Shown here: positions 5,913 through 15,971 of the stretch, piece after piece | Layout of the letters: every line of letters begins with the position of its first letter | How positions within the stretch are numbered: the stretch's first letter is position 1 | Source of the DNA: a virus | Lineage: Duplodnaviria > Heunggongvirae > Uroviricota > Caudoviricetes | IMG/VR virus record: IMGVR_UViG_2861043448_000001 | DNA: 22,628 bases | Direction: 5' to 3' (one strand) | Position numbers and translations under genes: made by a program | Notes under the pieces: model-generated | Told to the model about the DNA's origin: nothing | The model's input: the letters and a program-made list of their open reading frames with translations, nothing else | The model's database searches: none

Positions 5913-6335
5913 GTGGCAAAAGTTTTTACACAAGAAGAGCGGGAAAAAATTAAAGGGCAGGTTGTTGAACTCGTACGCCGGAGTGGGCGTGAGACGTTAC
6001 GGCAACTGGAAGTCAAGACAGGTGCGACAAGATATCTGATGAGCGTTCTCGCAAGAGAGCTGGTTGCCAGCGGCGATGTATACAACTCTGGTTACGGGTT
6101 ATTCCCGTTTGAACAGGCGCGTAAGGACTGGCAAAATGCCCGTAAAAAGCTCTCAAGGGCAAAGCTGAAGGAACCATCTGCGGTTGATCCGGACCTTATC
6201 TGGTCATTACCTGACGGAGAAATACGTCGTTACGACAGGCGTCATAATATGATTTGTACTGAGTGTCGTAAAAGCGAAGTTATGCAGCGCATATTGTCGT
6301 TTTATCAGGGGGATGTCCGGTATTTATTGAAGTGA
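5913..6335 (+). CDS. Hypothetical protein with an N-terminal winged-helix-like segment
   Basis: GTG start at 5913 follows a strong aggaggg SD at 5903-5909. 140 codons. Confidence 0.7.
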   Translation: MAKVFTQEEREKIKGQVVELVRRSGRETLRQLEVKTGATRYLMSVLARELVASGDVYNSGYGLFPFEQARKDWQNARKKLSRAKLKEPSAVDPDLIWSLPDGEIRRYDRRHNMICTECRKSEVMQRILSFYQGDVRYLLK

Positions 6336-6403
6336 CGAGATTAAAGTGCATTAGTTCAGATGCAAATTGACATTTTGTGGCACAGGGTAGAGCTAGCGTG
6401 GTT

Positions 6404-6427
6404 GTCCGCTTTGTGCCAAGAGCGGAC
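6404..6427 (+). repeat. Palindromic repeat, type H2, copy A (gtccgctttgtgccaagagcggac)
   Basis: 7-bp stem gtccgct/agcggac. Near-identical to the copy at 7620-7643. The flank tttgca...ggggg is also shared with that copy. Confidence 0.8.
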
Positions 6428-6464
6428 TTTGCAAAATGGGGGTTATTTCAATCAAAACGTAACG

Positions 6465-7409
6465 TCACAACCAGCCGACGCTCTCTCGCCATTTATAATT
6501 AGTAACTTTATCATTTTCGCTTATTTTTTTAGATATAGAGCGCGGCTCTCTTCCTAGATACTCAGATATTTCTATCGGGGACAAATCAAAATCAACAAGC
6601 ATGACTCTAAGTTTTTCCATTTCCTTTAAAGTCCAAGGCTTGCCATAATTTTCATAAAGAGATACCTTATGCTCCCTGATAGTTCGCTTTCTCTGAGTTT
6701 CACTTTCCCTCTGAAAAATCTCGCTTTTAAATTGTGAACGGAACTCTTTACAGAAGTTGTTATCAGTTTTTTTGTTATATAGATTGCTAAAAATAAGCTG
6801 GGATGCCGGGTCTAAATCAGGTGTGTTAATAATGAAAACTTTGACCTTTTCCATATAGGGATATTCAATTTTACCCAATATGCTTAATTGCTTTATATTA
6901 AAAAAACCTCTCAAATCAAAAGATTTAATGAGCTTTGATTGGATTACACTTTCAATCCTGCTTGCATTTAAATAACAGTACTTTGCCATTGGAAGGGCCC
7001 ATACTACCAGTTGAGGAATATATTTTTCTAATGCAATGCTCTGCCAATCAGTATCAAAGGTTTGGCTTTTTGCTAGCATGTTTTTCGGCAAATCAGAATA
7101 CATTGTGGTAGATGCCCATATCTTATAATCATTCGCCAAGGCTTGATAGTATTTTGTGTGGTTATGAATTTTATAAGCTGACATGAAGCGATAAACGTCT
7201 TCGTCGTGACCAGCGTCGTAAATTGTTCGATTTCCTCTAAGATAACCGTCGTAATGTTCGGTTATCCTTCTACCTACATTACAACTTACCCCAACGTAAA
7301 CCACACGACTGAAAAGTCCTTTATGGACAATAAGATAAACTCCGCTACAGCCAGATTTCCTGGCCTCTGATAGAGAACCTAAAAATCTCCATTCCATAAT
7401 TAAATCCAT
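6465..7409 (-). CDS. GIY-YIG family nuclease with a C-terminal helix-turn-helix-like domain
   Basis: 314-codon ORF. The N-terminus reads GVYLIV-x9-VVYVGVSCNVGRRITEHY (GIY...YVG...R..H pattern), with a later glutamate in SRIESVIQ. The C-terminus reads PWTLKEMEKLRVML..SPIEISEYLGREPRSISKKI, which looks Myb/HTH-like. The gene is AT-rich. Confidence 0.8.
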   Translation of the reverse strand: MDLIMEWRFLGSLSEARKSGCSGVYLIVHKGLFSRVVYVGVSCNVGRRITEHYDGYLRGNRTIYDAGHDEDVYRFMSAYKIHNHTKYYQALANDYKIWASTTMYSDLPKNMLAKSQTFDTDWQSIALEKYIPQLVVWALPMAKYCYLNASRIESVIQSKLIKSFDLRGFFNIKQLSILGKIEYPYMEKVKVFIINTPDLDPASQLIFSNLYNKKTDNNFCKEFRSQFKSEIFQRESETQRKRTIREHKVSLYENYGKPWTLKEMEKLRVMLVDFDLSPIEISEYLGREPRSISKKISENDKVTNYKWRESVGWL

Positions 7410-7577
7410 AATTATTGCTACTGTTTTTGTTTATCATTATTTTCGTGAAACTTCAACAATTTTATCCAAAAGCTAAGGGCAAAGACTTATATAATTATAC
7501 TTGTCATCGTTAGCGATTATATAGAGTAGTGGCGCTGACCTGCTCCCTGGTGATTCACACAGAATGCTGTTAGTAAT

Positions 7578-7601
7578 GTCCGTTCCTCGCTCTCAGCGGA
7601 C
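7578..7601 (+). repeat. Palindromic repeat, type H1, copy B1 (gtccgttcctcgctctcagcggac)
   Basis: Shares the core tccgtYctcgctc..agcggac with the copy at 11791-11814 (20 of 24 positions) and the copy at 9561-9584 (18 of 24). Confidence 0.75.
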
Positions 7602-7619
7602 CTTCAGCTCAGTGATATC

Positions 7620-7643
7620 GTCCGCTCTGTGCAAAGAGCGGAC
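7620..7643 (+). repeat. Palindromic repeat, type H2, copy B2 (gtccgctctgtgcaaagagcggac)
   Basis: Perfect 9-bp stem with a 6-nt loop. Differs from copy A at two positions. Confidence 0.8.
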
Positions 7644-7956
7644 GTTGGTATGCAAGAGCCCTCCAAAAGTTGATGGTTGGTTTGCAGGGGGGCTTAAAGA
7701 AACTGCACTTATCAAGTTGAAGTTCTGTATTCAGCGAAATCGTAGCACTCTGACGATAAGTAACTCCGGTACTCCGCTCTTCGATGAAGAACCAGAGTAA
7801 TCCCCCCGAAAAACCAGCGCATCAAAATTGGATCTTCAGCGGTAGCTTATCGGCTATCGGAAGTACAGGTGTGGATTCGTGGTGAATTGCTTTGATAATA
7901 AACGATTAATACGGAAAAACGCATTAATCATTTATTAGCTTTTAGTAAACCACAAT

Positions 7957-9306
7957 TTATTCCGTTTTACATATCATAGTAGTCGATTGGAGAATATAGT
8001 TTCTGGGAATGTACTCTTCAAAGTGTTCGTCCTTTTTAAATACATGAACTACATTTGGGAATAATTGATAGTCAACAGGGTGTATAGCGTTTGGATTATG
8101 GTACATGTACATGGCTGTACACCATGGTTCTTGATAGTTAGGGTCACTTACATCGGCTGAAAATGGATGTGGGGCTGCATCCTGATCAGTTTTAACACCA
8201 CTGACGTACACTTTGAATCCACTCGCCTCTACACCTGCAAGAATTCCCATCCGGTTAAACTTAGGTATGGTTGCTTGAGTAGTGAGTAAAACGGCAGAAA
8301 CATAATTATTTTGTTCTGAGCCAAAAAAGTTCGACTTGATACTTCTATTTTCATCTGTATGTCTTTCAATAGAAATGCCTGACTCAATATCAATCCCGTA
8401 CAAATAGCTATGCAAGGCTTCGCTTGAGAAGGCCATGGACATTCTTTTTGAATAATCCTGCATTGCTATGACAAATGGTTTGTTCTTTGTATGGTTGAGT
8501 TCCCAGTAATGAACTTTCTCTGGCTCAGGGCAATGCCGGACTTTTTTTAATAAACTTCTTGCAAACTTAAAAGGCATGACATTTAGAACATGTTTTCTTA
8601 ATTCATCCATCTGTTCATCGTTAATGACTTTTCTTTCAAGAGGGGCTTCTGCTTCAGCAATGCTTACAGCCTCTACAGCAATTTCCACTCCAAATTTAGA
8701 TAGCAGAAAATCTGGTTGATTGTATTCTCTATTCATTTCAAAGTCGAGTTCATAAAATACAGCGTTCAAATATAATTCAAATAACCTTGAATTAAATGCA
8801 TCACTTTGAAAATCCCTTATAAATATTCCATCAGGATCTTTGAACCAGTATGCAAGTTCCTCAAGAACAATATATGCAGGGAAATGAAGAGGGTCTTCGA
8901 GGAGCATTTTTATATAAACATTCCTTTTTTTCGCTGGGACCTTACTCAAGAATAATGAAAAAGGTTTGGTTGATTCATCGCCTTGCATGAATGTACCATT
9001 TTGGTGCTGCGCCAGCATCTTTGGTATGTCATCGTTCAAATTATTAAGCAAGACATCCATTGAATCAAATGAAGCCAAGACGTTTATTGCTCTGAATTTT
9101 TTATCTAAATCCCGACCTAAGACTATTGCGTTAAAATCTTTATCAATATTGCATATGATTATTGTGGATAACAATGTTATCCCATTCCCCTCATATTTAA
9201 ACCAGCGTATCTCCTCAGAAAATGTCTTAAGGTAAGGTGAGCGACCGTAAAAATAAATATCAAATTGTTCTTTGCTGATCTCACTGAAGTGTAATCCTGC
9301 GTTCAT
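7957..9306 (-). CDS. Orphan 449-aa protein; a possible degenerate PD-(D/E)xK-like core; function unknown
   Basis: Long AT-rich ORF with aagga 8 nt upstream of its ATG. The segment FELYLNAVF...NQPDFLLSKFGVEIAVEAVS resembles a helix-E / PD / ExE arrangement but lacks a clear lysine. I recognise no other motif. Confidence 0.75.
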   Translation of the reverse strand: MNAGLHFSEISKEQFDIYFYGRSPYLKTFSEEIRWFKYEGNGITLLSTIIICNIDKDFNAIVLGRDLDKKFRAINVLASFDSMDVLLNNLNDDIPKMLAQHQNGTFMQGDESTKPFSLFLSKVPAKKRNVYIKMLLEDPLHFPAYIVLEELAYWFKDPDGIFIRDFQSDAFNSRLFELYLNAVFYELDFEMNREYNQPDFLLSKFGVEIAVEAVSIAEAEAPLERKVINDEQMDELRKHVLNVMPFKFARSLLKKVRHCPEPEKVHYWELNHTKNKPFVIAMQDYSKRMSMAFSSEALHSYLYGIDIESGISIERHTDENRSIKSNFFGSEQNNYVSAVLLTTQATIPKFNRMGILAGVEASGFKVYVSGVKTDQDAAPHPFSADVSDPNYQEPWCTAMYMYHNPNAIHPVDYQLFPNVVHVFKKDEHFEEYIPRNYILQSTTMICKTE

Positions 9307-9428
9307 ACCAATTCCTTTTCAATGAATAATTGGCCTTTAGGAGTGATTCCCTTTGTCTTTAATTCAGTTCTAACTAGTTCTTTAATCCAATAGCCTAAGC
9401 TCATCATGCAGTTGGATCATAAGACAAC

Positions 9429-9457
9429 GCCCTATAGTGCTCGTGATACTATAGGGC
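9429..9457. repeat. Perfect 10-bp inverted repeat with a 9-nt spacer (gccctatagt-N9-actatagggc)
   Basis: Read directly from the sequence. It lies between the divergent 449-aa gene and the recombinase gene. No T-run follows on either strand. Confidence 0.7.
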
Positions 9458-9560
9458 ATCTGACCACACTGTTAACTGGAGTAACGACTATGGCAGGAAT
9501 ACAGCATAACCAAACTCACCCCAAACTTACATAGCGCTTTCTGGCCGTGAGCATAACAAG

Positions 9561-9584
9561 GTCCACTCCTCGCTCATAAGGGAC
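9561..9584 (+). repeat. Palindromic repeat, type H1, degenerate copy D (gtccactcctcgctcataagggac)
   Basis: Keeps the termini gtcc...ggac and the core tcctcgctc. The palindrome is weakened to 4 bp. Confidence 0.6.
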
Positions 9585-9587
9585 AAC

Positions 9588-9626
9588 CATACTCAAATCT
9601 CCCACATTGCAGGAGATTTGAGTATG
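9588..9626 (+). promoter_or_regulatory. Perfect 15-bp inverted repeat (catactcaaatctcc-N9-ggagatttgagtatg) enclosing the recombinase SD and ATG
   Basis: The right arm contains GGAG (9612-9615) and the ATG at 9624-9626. It could be an RBS-sequestering hairpin in read-through transcripts, or a lox/FRT-style core site. Confidence 0.65.
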
Positions 9627-10226
9627 AACACGTCACCGTGGAACAAAGACCGTATCATAGGCCAAAAAAGACCACTTCAGATATCTCATATCTGGGGTAT
9701 CCGAATCCGACTTGAACTGGAAGGTAAAACTCGCGATTTAGCTCTGTTCAACATGGCCCTGGATAGTAAGCTTCGAGGCTGTGATCTGGTCAAACTCAAA
9801 GTATCTGATGTTGCATATGGTGGCTCTGTTTCAAGCAGAGCAACGGTGTTGCAACAGAAAACCGGTAGCCCTGTTCAATTTGAGATAACCAAAGGGACAA
9901 GAGAAGCTGTTGCTGCATTGATACAGCTTAGCAATTTGCACAGTAAAGACTTCTTGTTTCGGTCTAGGGTCGGAACTAACCAGCACATTTCAACCCGGCA
10001 ATACAACCGAATCTTTCATGGGGGGGTAGAAAAGCTTGGTCTCGAAGATTCGCTTTACAGCACACATTCCATGAGAAGAACAAAACCTTACCTGATCTAC
10101 AAGAAAACCAAGAATCTCCGGGTGATCCAACTTCTGTTGGGTCATAAGAAACTGGAAAGCACAGTCCGTTATCTGGGCATTGAAGTCGATGATGCGTTAG
10201 AGATTTCTGAATCGATTGAAGTCTAA
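9624..10226 (+). CDS. Mini tyrosine recombinase (catalytic domain only, ~200 aa)
   Basis: Catalytic signature occurs in order: DSKLRGCDL (R), LQQKTG (K), HSMRRT (HxxR), LLGHKK (H), VRYLG (Y). The ATG at 9624 sits 8 nt after aggag. The track start at 9618 is a TTG. Confidence 0.85.
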   Translation: MNTSPWNKDRIIGQKRPLQISHIWGIRIRLELEGKTRDLALFNMALDSKLRGCDLVKLKVSDVAYGGSVSSRATVLQQKTGSPVQFEITKGTREAVAALIQLSNLHSKDFLFRSRVGTNQHISTRQYNRIFHGGVEKLGLEDSLYSTHSMRRTKPYLIYKKTKNLRVIQLLLGHKKLESTVRYLGIEVDDALEISESIEV

Positions 10227-10232
10227 GGTTGT

Positions 10233-10254
10233 CAGGGCTGCAACAGCAGCCCTG
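10233..10254 (+). terminator. GC-rich hairpin after the recombinase gene (cagggctgc-aaca-gcagccctg); no T-run
   Basis: 9-bp perfect stem beginning 7 nt after the stop codon. The lack of a U-tract makes intrinsic termination uncertain. Confidence 0.3.
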
Positions 10255-10585
10255 TGCCATAAGCGGAAGTATTTAACAACTATCAGTGTTGTTCAACAGA
10301 TAAAGGGGCACTTGATTTTTTCTGTTCTCAGGAAATGATAAAAGCGCGTCGGTTCAAGCCTGCTTAACGGGAGTTTGTTAATCCTGTTGCCGTGACGTTT
10401 TGACACCATTATGATGGGGAGACACTTAATGTATGAAGGTTCCGCCACTTATACCTGTCCAACAACTGCCTCGGATGTTTCTTTGTATGAATAAGTGGTA
10501 ATGAGTAGTGAATCGCTAACAGTCACCCGAACAATCGGTGCCTGCAATTAATTCTATATTCTAAACGAGGGGGAGATTATTACAC

Positions 10586-11566
10586 ATGAAATTTAAGGAC
10601 AAGAACCTTAAGGCTCTCGCGGAATGTATCATAGGAGATAATAAGGCATTTCTGTATCGTTCAAGCAGTCACATCACTGAATTTTTCCAGGACTGCGGCA
10701 TGGATGTTACTCATGACGGATCCACTCGGTGGAAATGGACGGCCCAGAGGCTTGAAGAACTTCTTTATGAGCCACAGTCAAAGCCACATACTTTGCCGGA
10801 AAGGTTTGTTCATGTGCTCAGAACTTTAATGTTAAAAGAAGATGCAATGGATGACGATCCAGGAAGATTAAAGGCGCTTGAAGAACTGAACAAGCCTTTG
10901 ATGCGGGAAGGCTATGAGGCATTCTATGGTGACGATCGCCTTTTGTATATACGCCATACCGATACCAAAACGGTTTCAGTCAGTAATAACCCTCATCGGC
11001 CCTTAACGCCTCACGAAGTAGAATGCAGAAGGTTACTGACCGCGTTTCTTGATACCTGCTCAGAAGATGAGTTAATAGAAGATATTCTCCTTCCTTTATT
11101 CCGGCAACTTGGTTTTCACCGGATAACAGCAGTGGGACATAAAGATAAAGCGCTGGAATACGGGAAAGACATCTGGATGAAGTTCACACTGCCAACTCAG
11201 CATGTTCTTTATTTCGGCATTCAGGCAAAAAAAGGTAAGTTGGATGCGTCCGGTGCCAGCAAATCTACGAATTCAAACGTGGCAGAAATCTTCAACCAGG
11301 TACTGATGATGCTTGGCCATGAAATATTTGACCCAGAAACAAATAGAAAGGTGCTGGTAGATCATGCCTTTATCGTTGCTGGCGGAGAAATTACTAAACA
11401 GGCGAGGAACTGGCTGGGCGGGAAACTTGATGCCAGCAAAAGAAGCCAGATAATATTTATGGACCGGGAAGACATTCTTAATTTATATACTGTAAGTAAT
11501 GTACCTCTGCCAACAGGTGCTCTCATCTCTGATGATGCCGTTAAGAACGATGATATTCCTTTCTAA
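10586..11566 (+). CDS. Two-domain protein: unknown N-terminal domain plus C-terminal Mrr-like restriction-endonuclease-fold (D...QxK) domain
   Basis: 326-codon ORF with a gagggggag SD. The C-terminal half reads ELIEDILLPLFRQLGFHRITAVGH..EYGKDIWMKF..LYFGIQAKKGK...AFIVAGGEITKQA. This matches the Mrr_cat layout of helix, G-x-D-I, then (Q/E)xK. Confidence 0.75.
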   Translation: MKFKDKNLKALAECIIGDNKAFLYRSSSHITEFFQDCGMDVTHDGSTRWKWTAQRLEELLYEPQSKPHTLPERFVHVLRTLMLKEDAMDDDPGRLKALEELNKPLMREGYEAFYGDDRLLYIRHTDTKTVSVSNNPHRPLTPHEVECRRLLTAFLDTCSEDELIEDILLPLFRQLGFHRITAVGHKDKALEYGKDIWMKFTLPTQHVLYFGIQAKKGKLDASGASKSTNSNVAEIFNQVLMMLGHEIFDPETNRKVLVDHAFIVAGGEITKQARNWLGGKLDASKRSQIIFMDREDILNLYTVSNVPLPTGALISDDAVKNDDIPF

Positions 11567-11790
11567 TCAGAAGTACGTCTTTTTCTGAAAGAATACGTGA
11601 TAGGTAGCCACACCACACCTTTAGTGACCCCTTAATCTGGTAATATAACAGCCCGTATGAATGTCCGCGGCATCGCGGGCTGAAATTTATTAAAAATACT
11701 TATTCATCAAGCTGGAGTAGTTTGCCGAGTAACTGTAAACGCCCAACTTAACCGGACCATTCACTTTTAGATTGCTACCAGCAAACCAAC

Positions 11791-11814
11791 TTCCGTTTCT
11801 CGCTCAAAGCGGAC
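11791..11814 (+). repeat. Palindromic repeat, type H1, copy C (ttccgtttctcgctcaaagcggac)
   Basis: 20 of 24 positions match copy B1. Same orientation. It lies at the right edge of the island. Confidence 0.7.
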
Positions 11815-11993
11815 TAGAAGGTTAGCTTGCGTCGGACTTGGCGTATTTAAAGAAGTGCTGGTGGTAACTGGTTGTTGTGTTCCATTTCTACAAAACAAAA
11901 TCACAGAAACTATACCCAATAGTTATATTGAATCAATGATGAGACAGCCTCATATTTATCAGAACTGGTGTACGTCCAATACAGGAGGTTGTC

Positions 11994-12119: not shown

Positions 12120-12171
12120 TGCTGCGGGTGCTTGAGGCTATCTGCCTCAGGCATGAACACCAAAGGCAGAT

Positions 12172-12246
12172 AGAGAAAAGCCCCAGTTAACATTACGCGT
12201 CCTGCAAGACGTTTAACATTAATCTGAGGCTCAATCTATGAACGGC
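12172..12246 (-). ncRNA. sok: Sok-like antisense RNA of the hok locus (ends approximate)
   Basis: The minus strand has TTGCCT-17 nt-TAACCT (plus-strand coordinates 12281-12276 and 12258-12253). The predicted transcript covers the mok start region and folds into a long imperfect hairpin ending ctggggcuuuucucu. This matches the R1 hok/sok layout. Confidence 0.5.
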
Positions 12247-12450
12247 AAATCTAGGTTAGCCTCTTACGTGCCGAAAGGCAAGGAGAAGCAGGCTATGAAG
12301 CAGCAAAAGGCGATGTTAATCGCCCTGATCGTCATCTGTTTAACCGTCATAATGACGGCACTGGTAACGAGGAAAGACCTCTGCGAGGTACGAATCCGAA
12401 CCGGCCAGACGGAGGTCGCTGTCTTCACAGCTTACGAACCTGAGGAGTAA
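12238..12450 (+). CDS. mok: Mok-like reading frame (in-frame N-terminal extension of Hok)
   Basis: 70-codon ORF containing the Hok sequence, as in the chromosomal mokC/hokC arrangement. Confidence 0.6.
   Translation: MNGKSRLASYVPKGKEKQAMKQQKAMLIALIVICLTVIMTALVTRKDLCEVRIRTGQTEVAVFTAYEPEE
12295..12450 (+). CDS. hokD: Hok/Gef family type I toxin (closest to my recollection of HokD/RelF)
   Basis: MKQQKAMLIALIVICLTVIMTALVTRKDLCEVRIRTGQTEVAVFTAYEPEE is the classic Hok signature. An aggag SD lies at 12281-12285. Confidence 0.9.
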   Translation: MKQQKAMLIALIVICLTVIMTALVTRKDLCEVRIRTGQTEVAVFTAYEPEE

Positions 12451-15661: not shown

Positions 15662-15737
15662 GGCCCTTTAGCTCAGTGGTGAGAGCGAGCGACTCATAAT
15701 CGACAGGTCGCTGGGTCAAATCCAGCAAGGGCCACCA
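15662..15737 (+). tRNA. tRNA with CAU anticodon, ileX/ileZ-like (Ile2 or Met); weakened anticodon stem and unusual T-loop
   Basis: Cloverleaf fits: acceptor GGCCCTT/AAGGGCC, D-arm GCTC..GAGC, loop CTCATAA, encoded CCA. However, 27:43 and 28:42 are mismatched and the T-loop starts with G (GTCAAAT). Confidence 0.6.
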
Positions 15738-15738
15738 A

Positions 15739-15815
15739 CCGTCACCAGTTCATCAGGAAAGAGCGTCAACCCTTTAAGTTGAGTGTGCGAGGTTCGAGTC
15801 CCCGGTGGCGGTCCA
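15739..15815 (+). tRNA. tRNA-like gene, anticodon loop CCTTTAA (nominally Lys-UUU with C33); possibly a pseudo-tRNA
   Basis: Acceptor CCGTCAC/GTGGCGG with one G-U pair. T-loop TTCGAGT, with one T-stem mismatch. C replaces the near-universal U33. CCA is encoded. Confidence 0.45.
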
Positions 15816-15817
15816 GT

Positions 15818-15893
<76 letters not shown>

Positions 15894-15896
15894 TAT

Positions 15897-15971
<75 letters not shown>

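Follow-up and report, generated by a model that had tools for sequence, protein, structure and literature searches.

The stretch of DNA analysed here, IMG/VR record IMGVR_UViG_2861043448_000001 (22,628 nucleotides; hereafter the window), is a Qin-like lambdoid cryptic prophage that lies beside rspAB/ynfA and is identical in E. coli 042 and in some 180 further complete genomes. Between its replication region (DUF977 gene) and its hok/sok-nin-Q region it carries a 5.4-kb insert whose largest gene encodes the anti-phage protein PD-T7-1 (match at 7.3e-157), and which also holds, in sense orientation with respect to the early-right operon, the gene of a small tyrosine recombinase (YR). From left to right the features are a B site (6404), a gene for a protein of 314 amino acids (aa), an A-18 bp-B junction (7578-7643), PD-T7-1, site A' (9561), a hairpin and the YR gene, site B' (10246), a 326-aa gene and an A site (11791), where A and B are two kinds of 24-bp sites and A' and B' are the copies that flank the YR gene (Table 1). 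The YR module is in the register A'...B', and the three cargo cassettes are in the register B...A.

Table 1. Features of the YR module and the surrounding cassette array (SD, Shine-Dalgarno sequence; ORF, open reading frame)
Feature	Positions	Strand	Basis or remark
B site GTCCGCT-TT-GTGCCA-AG-AGCGGAC	6404-6427	+	Island left border against the lambdoid backbone (DUF977 gene)
Cassette 1 (B...A), single gene 6465-7409, 314 aa	6428-7577	gene -	Without known domain
A-linker-B junction, 66 bp: A 7578-7601, 18-bp linker, B 7620-7643	7578-7643	+	Gene-less counterpart of the YR module
Cassette 2 (B...A'), PD-T7-1 defence gene 7957-9306	7644-9560	gene -	Own promoter region 9429-9475
Site A' GTCCACT-CC-TCGCTC-AT-AAGGGAC	9561-9584	+	Ends 3 nt before the hairpin
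Perfect 15-bp inverted repeat; predicted mRNA hairpin occluding SD and AUG	9588-9626	+	Sequence, RNA folding, homologue comparison
Tyrosine recombinase, catalytic domain only, 200 aa	9624-10226	+	ORF, Pfam, homologues; the same in RefSeq, as 'site-specific integrase'
Hairpin with 8-bp stem, AGGGCTGC-AACA-GCAGCCCT	10234-10253	+	Read from the sequence; terminator-like, without a T run
Site B' (GCAGCCCT)-GTGCCA-TA-AGCGGAA	10246-10268	+	Right end of the YR module; conservation between loci ends after B core and right arm
Cassette 3 (B'...A), single gene 10586-11566, 326 aa	10269-11790	gene +	Without known domain
A site TTCCGTT-TC-TCGCTC-AA-AGCGGAC	11791-11814	+	Island right border; backbone (hok/sok region) resumes exactly as in mEp460

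A first-pass annotation, made from the letters of the window alone, had described the recombinase as an enzyme of about 200 aa that consists of the catalytic domain only and retains a full R-K-HxxR-H-Y set, and the Pfam match, the homologues and the alignment with XerD all agree with this description. The protein matches Phage_integrase (PF00589) over residues 35-184 with 63.9 bits against a gathering cut-off of 27.1 (E = 2e-17), the catalytic residues R51, K79, H148-x-x-R151, H174 and Y183 are invariant in 25 homologues, and in a profile search they align with the XerD motifs RVSEL, HxLRH and LLGH...Y. Because the XerD match spans only XerD residues 131-280, the YR is without a core-binding domain. 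A phmmer search of the PDB with the YR gave no match, the XerD catalytic domain being reached by the profile search, and an AlphaFold model built with 25 homologues of 77-94% identity was poor (pLDDT 48.5). The program-made list of ORFs starts the gene at TTG 9618; we take ATG 9624 as the start, since the TTG lies only 2 nt past the GGAG of the SD. By model scores the YR is no integron integrase, Xer protein or Fim-type invertase: the integron-integrase models TIGR02249 and NF011946, whose cut-offs capture the additional domain of IntI, gave 17.2 bits (against 265) and 17.6 bits (against 435), in the C-terminal 70-80 residues only, the XerC/XerD equivalog models gave 44.7 bits (against a cut-off of 335) and 27.6 bits (330), and the FimB/FimE models PRK09871 and PRK09870 gave 27.5 bits (222) and 19.2 bits (221). 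The family of recombinases of about 200-211 aa to which it belongs comprises 526 representative clusters at E <= 1e-30. Close relatives are found in Enterobacterales and other Gammaproteobacteria such as Idiomarina and Pseudoalteromonas, further homologue loci among the 80 genome loci examined come from Pseudomonas and beta-proteobacteria, and the gene is carried by 847 of 5426 complete E. coli genomes. Three loci, L005 (at 6001-6600 and 9856-10455), L015 and L046, hold two diverged YR copies each; those of L005 are 84% and 98% identical to the query, and each duplicate copy has its own hairpin variant.

The start of the YR gene lies within a palindrome. Its left arm, CATACTCAAATCTCC (9588-9602), carries the anti-SD CTCC and a CAT; the 9-nt spacer or loop CACATTGCA (9603-9611) follows, and the right arm, GGAGATTTGAGTATG (9612-9626), contains the GGAG (9612-9615) and the ATG (9624-9626) of the gene. 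Letter-by-letter comparison found the arms complementary at 15/15 positions, so that the perfect palindrome with an N9 spacer, and the placement of SD and start codon in its right arm, are as first reported. By our own estimate, 22.6 kb of sequence would hold by chance about 3e-4 perfect 15-bp inverted repeats with a short loop (22628 x 12 x 4^-15). Folded by itself as RNA the hairpin has an energy of -22.5 kcal/mol (z = -7.0); in a 106-nt context it is retained in both the minimum free energy (MFE) and the centroid structure (-33 kcal/mol, z = -5.1), and 0 of 200 shuffles equalled it. There is no second copy of a palindrome arm in the 22.6-kb window, and no Rfam family matches the hairpin or the A and B sites. 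A scan of the plus strand from 9330 to 9624 gave no sigma-70 promoter for the YR gene, either upstream or inside, and no coupled upstream ORF was found that might serve as a bypass of the hairpin. The smaller hairpin at the other end of the gene lies just past the stop codon and overlaps the degenerate left arm of B'; it is kept in 12 enterobacterial loci, and distant homologues have analogous 3' hairpins.

An anti-SD/SD hairpin stands at the same position in homologues of 60-98% identity, with arm sequences that differ. Upstream of the start in the 80 genome loci the theme is ...CAT..xCTCC - loop - GGAGx..ATG with varying arms (for example GTCCTCC/GGAGGAC in Pseudomonas and ACACTTCTCCCG/CGGGAGAAGTGT in L066), and it recurs before homologues from both gamma- and beta-proteobacteria. 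RNAalifold detected no structure in 76 upstream regions aligned with MAFFT, the alignment being poor, and was replaced by folding of the individual sequences and by an anchored pairing test. Of the 81 homologue upstream regions folded, 66 have their SD and 53 their AUG base-paired in the MFE structure. Among 76 distinct sequences, 63% carry an exact anti-SD 4-mer at 3-16 nt 5' of the SD, as against 14% of upstream-shuffled controls, and a best ungapped stem of 9 or more Watson-Crick pairs is present in 35% of sequences and in 7% of controls. The pairs that flank the anti-SD core, which were not used as the anchor, are Watson-Crick in 40/48, 33/48 and 25/48 cases (z = 7.8, 4.8 and 2.9 against permuted partners, scores that are inflated by the relatedness of the sequences), and all four pair types are present at the first two of these positions. 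A covariance model built from 16 enterobacterial hairpins, which retrieved close relatives only, had matches among 123 loci solely directly 5' of YR genes, including the second copies in L005 and L015, or at one truncated YR relic, in phage YpM_22; the seed alignment of the 16 hairpins itself shows weak covariation (3 pairs changed on both sides, with the same score in 70 of 500 shuffles). Since the hairpin is found only directly 5' of YR genes, it is part of the expression unit of the gene. Most likely, and as the simplest reading of the hairpin, it would occlude SD and AUG in the mRNA and so repress translation, and its recurrence with different arms and its exclusive position 5' of YR genes support the translation-blocking RNA hairpin that had been proposed as one of two alternatives. 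The hairpin alone is a routine kind of translational control.

The YpM_22 relic (locus L002, 3995-4075) is present in Yersinia phage vB_YpM_22 and in some seven related phages of the P2-like group. In it, A', the hairpin and 20 nt from the start of the YR ORF are fused to the P2 backbone at ...GTGGAA|GGAC..., which suggests that the YR gene was probably deleted up to the right arm of B'.

The sites that bound the gene and the cassettes have the layout 7-2-6-2-7, with shared arms GTCCGCT and AGCGGAC around one of two invariant 6-bp cores: A is GTCCGCT-nn-TCGCTC-nn-AGCGGAC and B is GTCCGCT-nn-GTGCCA-nn-AGCGGAC. In logos of 64 distinct A and 61 distinct B sites the arms and cores are 78-100% conserved, with nearly all positions above 85%. 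The pattern GTCCRCT-N10-AGYGGAC located five sites in the window (6404, 7578, 7620, 9561 and 11791), and with the degenerate one at 10246-10268 there are six, all within 6404-11814 and in a single orientation. The two halves of A' differ in origin, the left being that of the PD-T7-1 cassette and the right that of the YR module. Around the YR gene, 12 enterobacterial loci whose flanks are unrelated are conserved from AACGTCCGCTnnTCGCTCAT to GTGCCAnAAGCGGACGTT, and in all 12 the gene lies between A and B cores of the same polarity. The inference of a self-contained unit in the first-pass annotation is only partly right: the gene is one module, which runs from A core to B core, but this module is part of a larger cassette array, and most arrays elsewhere are without the gene. 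A view of the YR gene as having entered an 'empty' site on its own, as an insert of about 675 bp, was dropped in favour of this model of cassettes in two registers.

Beyond the enterobacteria, a GTCCGCT arm occurs 60-90 nt upstream of YR homologues in many Pseudomonas, Xanthomonadales and some beta-proteobacterial loci. In Pseudomonas/Stutzerimonas loci within L029-L084 (for example L033, L037 and L046) the YR gene is flanked by 24-bp terminal inverted repeats that contain this arm, GTCCGCTTyTGGCCGGTTAGCGAC ... GTCGCTAACCGGCCAAAAGCrGmC; they are mutually inverted, unlike the enterobacterial A and B sites. In the window itself, the backbone immediately to the right of the final A site (11815-11850, TAGAAGGTTAGCTTGCGTCGGACTTGGCG) resembles a decayed linker and B site (GTTAGCTCG...CGGAC), which hints that the hotspot may once have ended in a full A-linker-B junction.

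The A and B sites also bound cassette arrays in P2-like and lambdoid phages and in genomic islands. Outside the outer B and A sites of the window the lambdoid backbone is the same as in mEp460, which has only B-PD-T7-1-A, and in E. coli A20, which has a 225-bp mini-cassette. The PD-T7-1 cassette has identical B-to-A borders in lambdoid mEp460, in the P2-like Yersinia phage YpM_46 and in this prophage, and the sequence left of about 9576 recurs in the two phages and is then followed by different DNA. The fun(Z) gene of P2 lies between the B site GTCCACT-CT-GTGCCA-AA-AGCGGAC and the A site TTCCGCT-TC-TCGCTC-AA-AGGAAAC, and three P2-like phages with a common backbone diverge right after a B site and re-converge at an A site. 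The 66-bp A-linker-B junction has 80% identity across unrelated loci. Of 5426 complete E. coli genomes 702 have it, without annotation, and it makes up 35 of 120 IMG/VR pattern matches, with arrays like B..A-B..A-B..A among them. Thirty-five distinct cassettes were 0.2-6 kb long and held one or two genes on either strand. When 21 cargo proteins were sampled (PD-T7-1 of the window and 20 from other loci), 6 matched PADLOC families, namely PD-T7-1, Lit (4e-126), a pVip-like radical-SAM protein, a PD-(D/E)xK nuclease, a STALD/SIR2-like protein and PDC-S32, and about three quarters had no PADLOC match. A 5.7-kb B...A cassette in the chromosome of E. coli ATCC 25922 (L206, 6042-11785) consists of an iron-uptake-like operon for a TonB-dependent receptor and an ABC transporter, so that the cargo is not confined to defence genes; the same island has a YR copy that is 94% identical, with an identical hairpin.

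The position at which one ancestry gives way to another can be read from the two variable dinucleotides beside each core. In pairs of sites with one common and one differing flank, which are not independent of each other, the dinucleotide on the shared side is kept in 31/38 (B) and 41/42 (A) pairs and that on the non-shared side in only 6/38 (B) and 12/42 (A); therefore, ancestry switches inside the 6-bp core. Such a core-confined switch would be the signature expected of strand exchange by a tyrosine recombinase in its overlap region, and unlike homologous crossovers, which would be evenly spread. In their sequences, then, the A and B sites have what defines sites of the lox/FRT type (inverted arms, a short asymmetric core, many copies and an exchange point within the core), and their binding and cleavage by the YR are predicted.

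These features can be brought together in one explanation, consisting of a repressing hairpin at the RNA level, a YR that acts on the A and B sites, and cassette exchange, which we consider somewhat likelier to be right than wrong. Transcripts with both arms would fold into a very stable hairpin that buries the SD and AUG of the YR mRNA, and very little YR would be translated, irrespective of the transcription that reaches the module from its neighbours or its landing context. The targets of the enzyme would be the 24-bp A and B sites and not the palindrome; it would bind their shared arms and exchange strands in the core, and since the cores differ, only A x A and B x B exchanges would occur. 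Single events would excise or insert circles of cargo plus junction, and double events would let any two B...A loci trade their cargo in the manner of recombinase-mediated cassette exchange (RMCE). Excision, stacking and replacement would then be open to any cassette that has B at its left and A at its right end. The YR gene would itself be a module in the complementary register (A core to B core), whose place is taken in most arrays by the 18-bp linker; because these arrays have the linker and not the gene, the enzyme would act in trans. The link between the YR and the sites rests on association, and on this footing the YR is the best candidate for an enzyme that services a widespread two-core cassette system with anti-phage genes. 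More tentatively, and with rather less than even confidence, we suggest that the family of YRs of about 200 aa and the two heterospecific 24-bp sites form a natural cassette-exchange platform, distinct from integrons. It would be the long-sought means by which P2-like phages, lambdoid prophages, genomic islands and plasmids of Proteobacteria exchange and accumulate anti-phage genes and other cargo, and the YR gene would itself be an exchangeable module in it, gated by a conserved SD/AUG hairpin.

The hairpin could be explained in other ways. In strict fold-back inhibition of the IS10 type, a weak promoter of the element's own would give translatable transcripts that start inside or after the left arm, and only read-through transcripts would be silenced. 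The palindrome can pair ribosome-binding site and AUG with an upstream segment as in IS10, and the YR module may land in any transcriptional context, here in sense within the early-right operon. The left arm, moreover, starts with CATACT (in L010-L012 CATAAT), which resembles a weak -10 hexamer in having A2 and T6, and a transcript started about 7 nt downstream of it would begin at the 3' end of the left arm. It is the defining point of IS10 fold-back that the element's own transcripts escape folding. The promoter scan gave nothing on the plus strand between 9330 and 9624, and the sequence shows neither an acceptable -35 nor a TG extension; the CAT of CATACT is already accounted for by its pairing with ATG. 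We regard this strict form as doubtful. The palindrome might also be a double-stranded DNA site, that is, an autoregulatory operator or a recombination core bound by a YR dimer, and the first-pass annotation had offered a lox/FRT-like core as its second alternative. The perfect dyad symmetry of the palindrome, its distance of 3 nt from A' and the lack of a bias towards G.U over A.C mismatches in the arms are in keeping with such a site. In addition, in a Leclercia metagenome-assembled genome (L013, 5959-6006) the loop reads TGCAATGTG, which is CACATTGCA exactly reverse-complemented, while the 15-bp arms are unchanged, presumably through a DNA-level event at the palindrome, so that such events do occur there. 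The same flip speaks against a lox-like site, because it would reverse the polarity of an asymmetric spacer and is tolerated, and it leaves an RNA hairpin unaffected. Furthermore, the arms change among proteins that are 85-98% identical (L010-L012 and L014) with only the SD-proximal pairing retained, whereas the arms of the A and B sites around the gene stay conserved; the 3' arm always coincides with the SD and not with a promoter; and the palindrome is single in the window and, with the covariance model and the 123 loci, was never found at the dozens of cassette junctions without a YR gene. The palindrome thus has neither the two or more partner copies, nor the arms conserved together with the enzyme, nor the constant spacer polarity of a lox/FRT site. 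A recombination core is not supported here, and a DNA-level role of either kind is improbable. The lox-like idea appears right in spirit, as lox-like sites flank the gene at 9561-9584 and 10246-10268, with four more in 6404-11814.

The movement of the cassettes also has competing explanations. The A and B repeats could be linkers for general homologous recombination by RecA or by phage Red/RecET, with the YR an unrelated passenger or a decaying integrase fragment. The sites supply 24 nearly identical bases, phage recombinases are able to use short homologies, and the YR gene is not nearby in most arrays. A decaying fragment would not be expected to remain intact at about 200 aa through the 526 clusters of the family and to keep all catalytic residues, nor a passenger to be bounded by A and B cores of one polarity in each of the 12 enterobacterial loci and to have similar arms beside distant homologues. 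The switch of ancestry in the 6-bp core and not across the arms also argues against general recombination, and two invariant alternative cores are what the spacer-homology rule predicts. We consider this explanation unlikely. It is very improbable that the YR is a FimB/FimE-like invertase that flips an adjacent segment as a phase-variation switch: its size and its architecture fit an invertase, there is a weak match to a model of tyrosine-type DNA invertases (2e-6), and in L013 one A/B pair is in opposite orientation, but the invertase score is far under the family cut-off, the six sites of the window are all direct, and the gene lies between two sites whose cores differ.

Besides the relatedness of the sequences in the pairing test, several facts weigh against the combined explanation of a repressing RNA hairpin and a YR that acts on the A and B sites. 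A perfect 15-bp stem should nearly abolish initiation, yet neither a promoter nor a coupled ORF that would bypass it was found. Mismatches in the arms have no sense-strand wobble bias (24 of the G.U type and 32 of the A.C type), and by that criterion RNA pairing is not separable from a strand-symmetric DNA palindrome. The inner, gene-proximal arms of A' and B' are degenerate, and the expectation that GTCCGCT arms are universal near YR homologues was weakened, as a check of 68 distinct homologue loci detected the arm near only 31. The YR gene is present in 5 and missing from 30 of the 35 IMG/VR junction loci, and homologous recombination over 24 conserved bases could move cassettes too.

The two other cargo proteins of the window, of 314 and 326 aa, have no significant match in Pfam, PADLOC or PHROG (at most one marginal match per library, for the 314-aa protein only), and by their position their genes are candidate new anti-phage genes. 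Within the PD-T7-1 cassette, on the minus strand at 9429-9475, the highest-scoring promoter-like site of the region, TTAACA-16-TATAGT (10/12), reads towards PD-T7-1 and has its -10 within a 10-bp palindrome (GCCCTATAGT-N9-ACTATAGGGC). This palindrome may be an operator for the defence gene; together with the promoter-like site it travels with the cassette to mEp460 and YpM_46. RefSeq also places a short pseudogene fragment of the AlpA family inside this cassette, at about 7815-7895. A 78-aa ORF in the program-made list (7564-7800, plus strand) crosses the A-linker-B junction and is probably spurious. Farther right, the sok antitoxin RNA of the hokD locus (12126-12300, 111.7 bits) and three tRNA genes (15662-15968) lie upstream of the lysis region and are ordinary lambdoid features.

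The exchange of defence systems in P2/P4 hotspots and between unrelated mobile elements is still posed as a question in recent surveys. Recombination at cos ends was speculated upon in 2022 (PMC9122126), a 2026 survey names transposition and homologous and illegitimate recombination and leaves the mechanism unresolved (PMC13586616), and a preprint on hotspot annotation makes no mention of the idea of site-specific exchange. The present locus turns this question into a directly testable one, as it yields a hypothesis that names a candidate enzyme, the sites and a rule, A x A and B x B with the crossover in the 6-bp core. If the explanation is true, it would account for hotspots being swapped rather than emptied, supply a marker for finding new defence cassettes, and provide, for engineering purposes, a very small recombinase together with two orthogonal sites.

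Hairpins that sequester the ribosome-binding site are known from transposase genes, in the fold-back inhibition of IS10 and the stem-loop of IS200. As in these, an inverted repeat at our locus has the SD and start codon of a DNA-rearranging enzyme in its 3' arm, and expression is presumed to be low and insulated; here, however, the enzyme is a tyrosine recombinase and not a DDE or HUH transposase, and the stem is unusually long and perfect. FimB and FimE, invertases of about 200 aa, resemble the YR in size and in having no core-binding domain, whereas the YR scores below their family cut-offs and its sites are direct, not inverted repeats around a promoter. With integrons the system would share a tyrosine recombinase and arrays of cassettes of one or two genes with short imperfect palindromes between them, and many arrays without a recombinase recall clusters of attC sites lacking integron integrases (CALINs), with cargo rich in anti-phage genes. 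It differs from integrons in that the 24-bp sites have two alternating cores and are not attC, there is no attI and no Pc, the cassettes are in either orientation (PD-T7-1 with its own promoter-like site), and the YR gene is a separate module within the array, with a product that scores far below the cut-offs of the IntI models.

The TTATG.TAAA arm of dif, a site of 11-6-11 layout, is absent by eye from the A and B sites. The pdif modules of Acinetobacter plasmids (for example PMC9947245), where XerC/XerD sites bracket resistance modules, are similar in that short sites alternate between modules in many contexts and in that our recombinase, too, would be supplied in trans; they differ in that the A and B sites are unlike dif and the candidate enzyme is encoded by the element and is not XerC/D. 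The closest precedent for the sites themselves is in P2-like coliphages, where inverted repeats flank fun(Z) and site-specific exchange between phage and bacterium was proposed (Nilsson, Karlsson and Haggard-Ljungquist 2004, as summarised in PMC8987985). These are the same sites as A and B here, and because that proposal dates from 2004, the repeats and the idea of site-specific exchange are, going by that summary, prior art. In comparison with fun(Z), the present sites are in a lambdoid prophage, are stacked in an array, and bracket a candidate YR gene with a conserved SD hairpin. The full-text literature that was searched, a set outside which the originals of Nilsson 2004 and Odegrip 2006 fall, contained no description of the recombinase family, the two-core architecture or the hairpin. 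Finally, the A and B sites resemble the heterospecific Cre/lox and Flp/FRT sites of engineered RMCE in their identical inverted arms, short asymmetric core and two incompatible cores flanking a cassette, where a double crossover would swap the cargo without emptying the locus. They differ from these in having arms of 7 bp plus 2 variable positions as against 13 bp and a core of 6 bp, and in a predicted recombinase without an N-terminal DNA-binding domain; moreover, the present system is a natural one, known here from its sequence.

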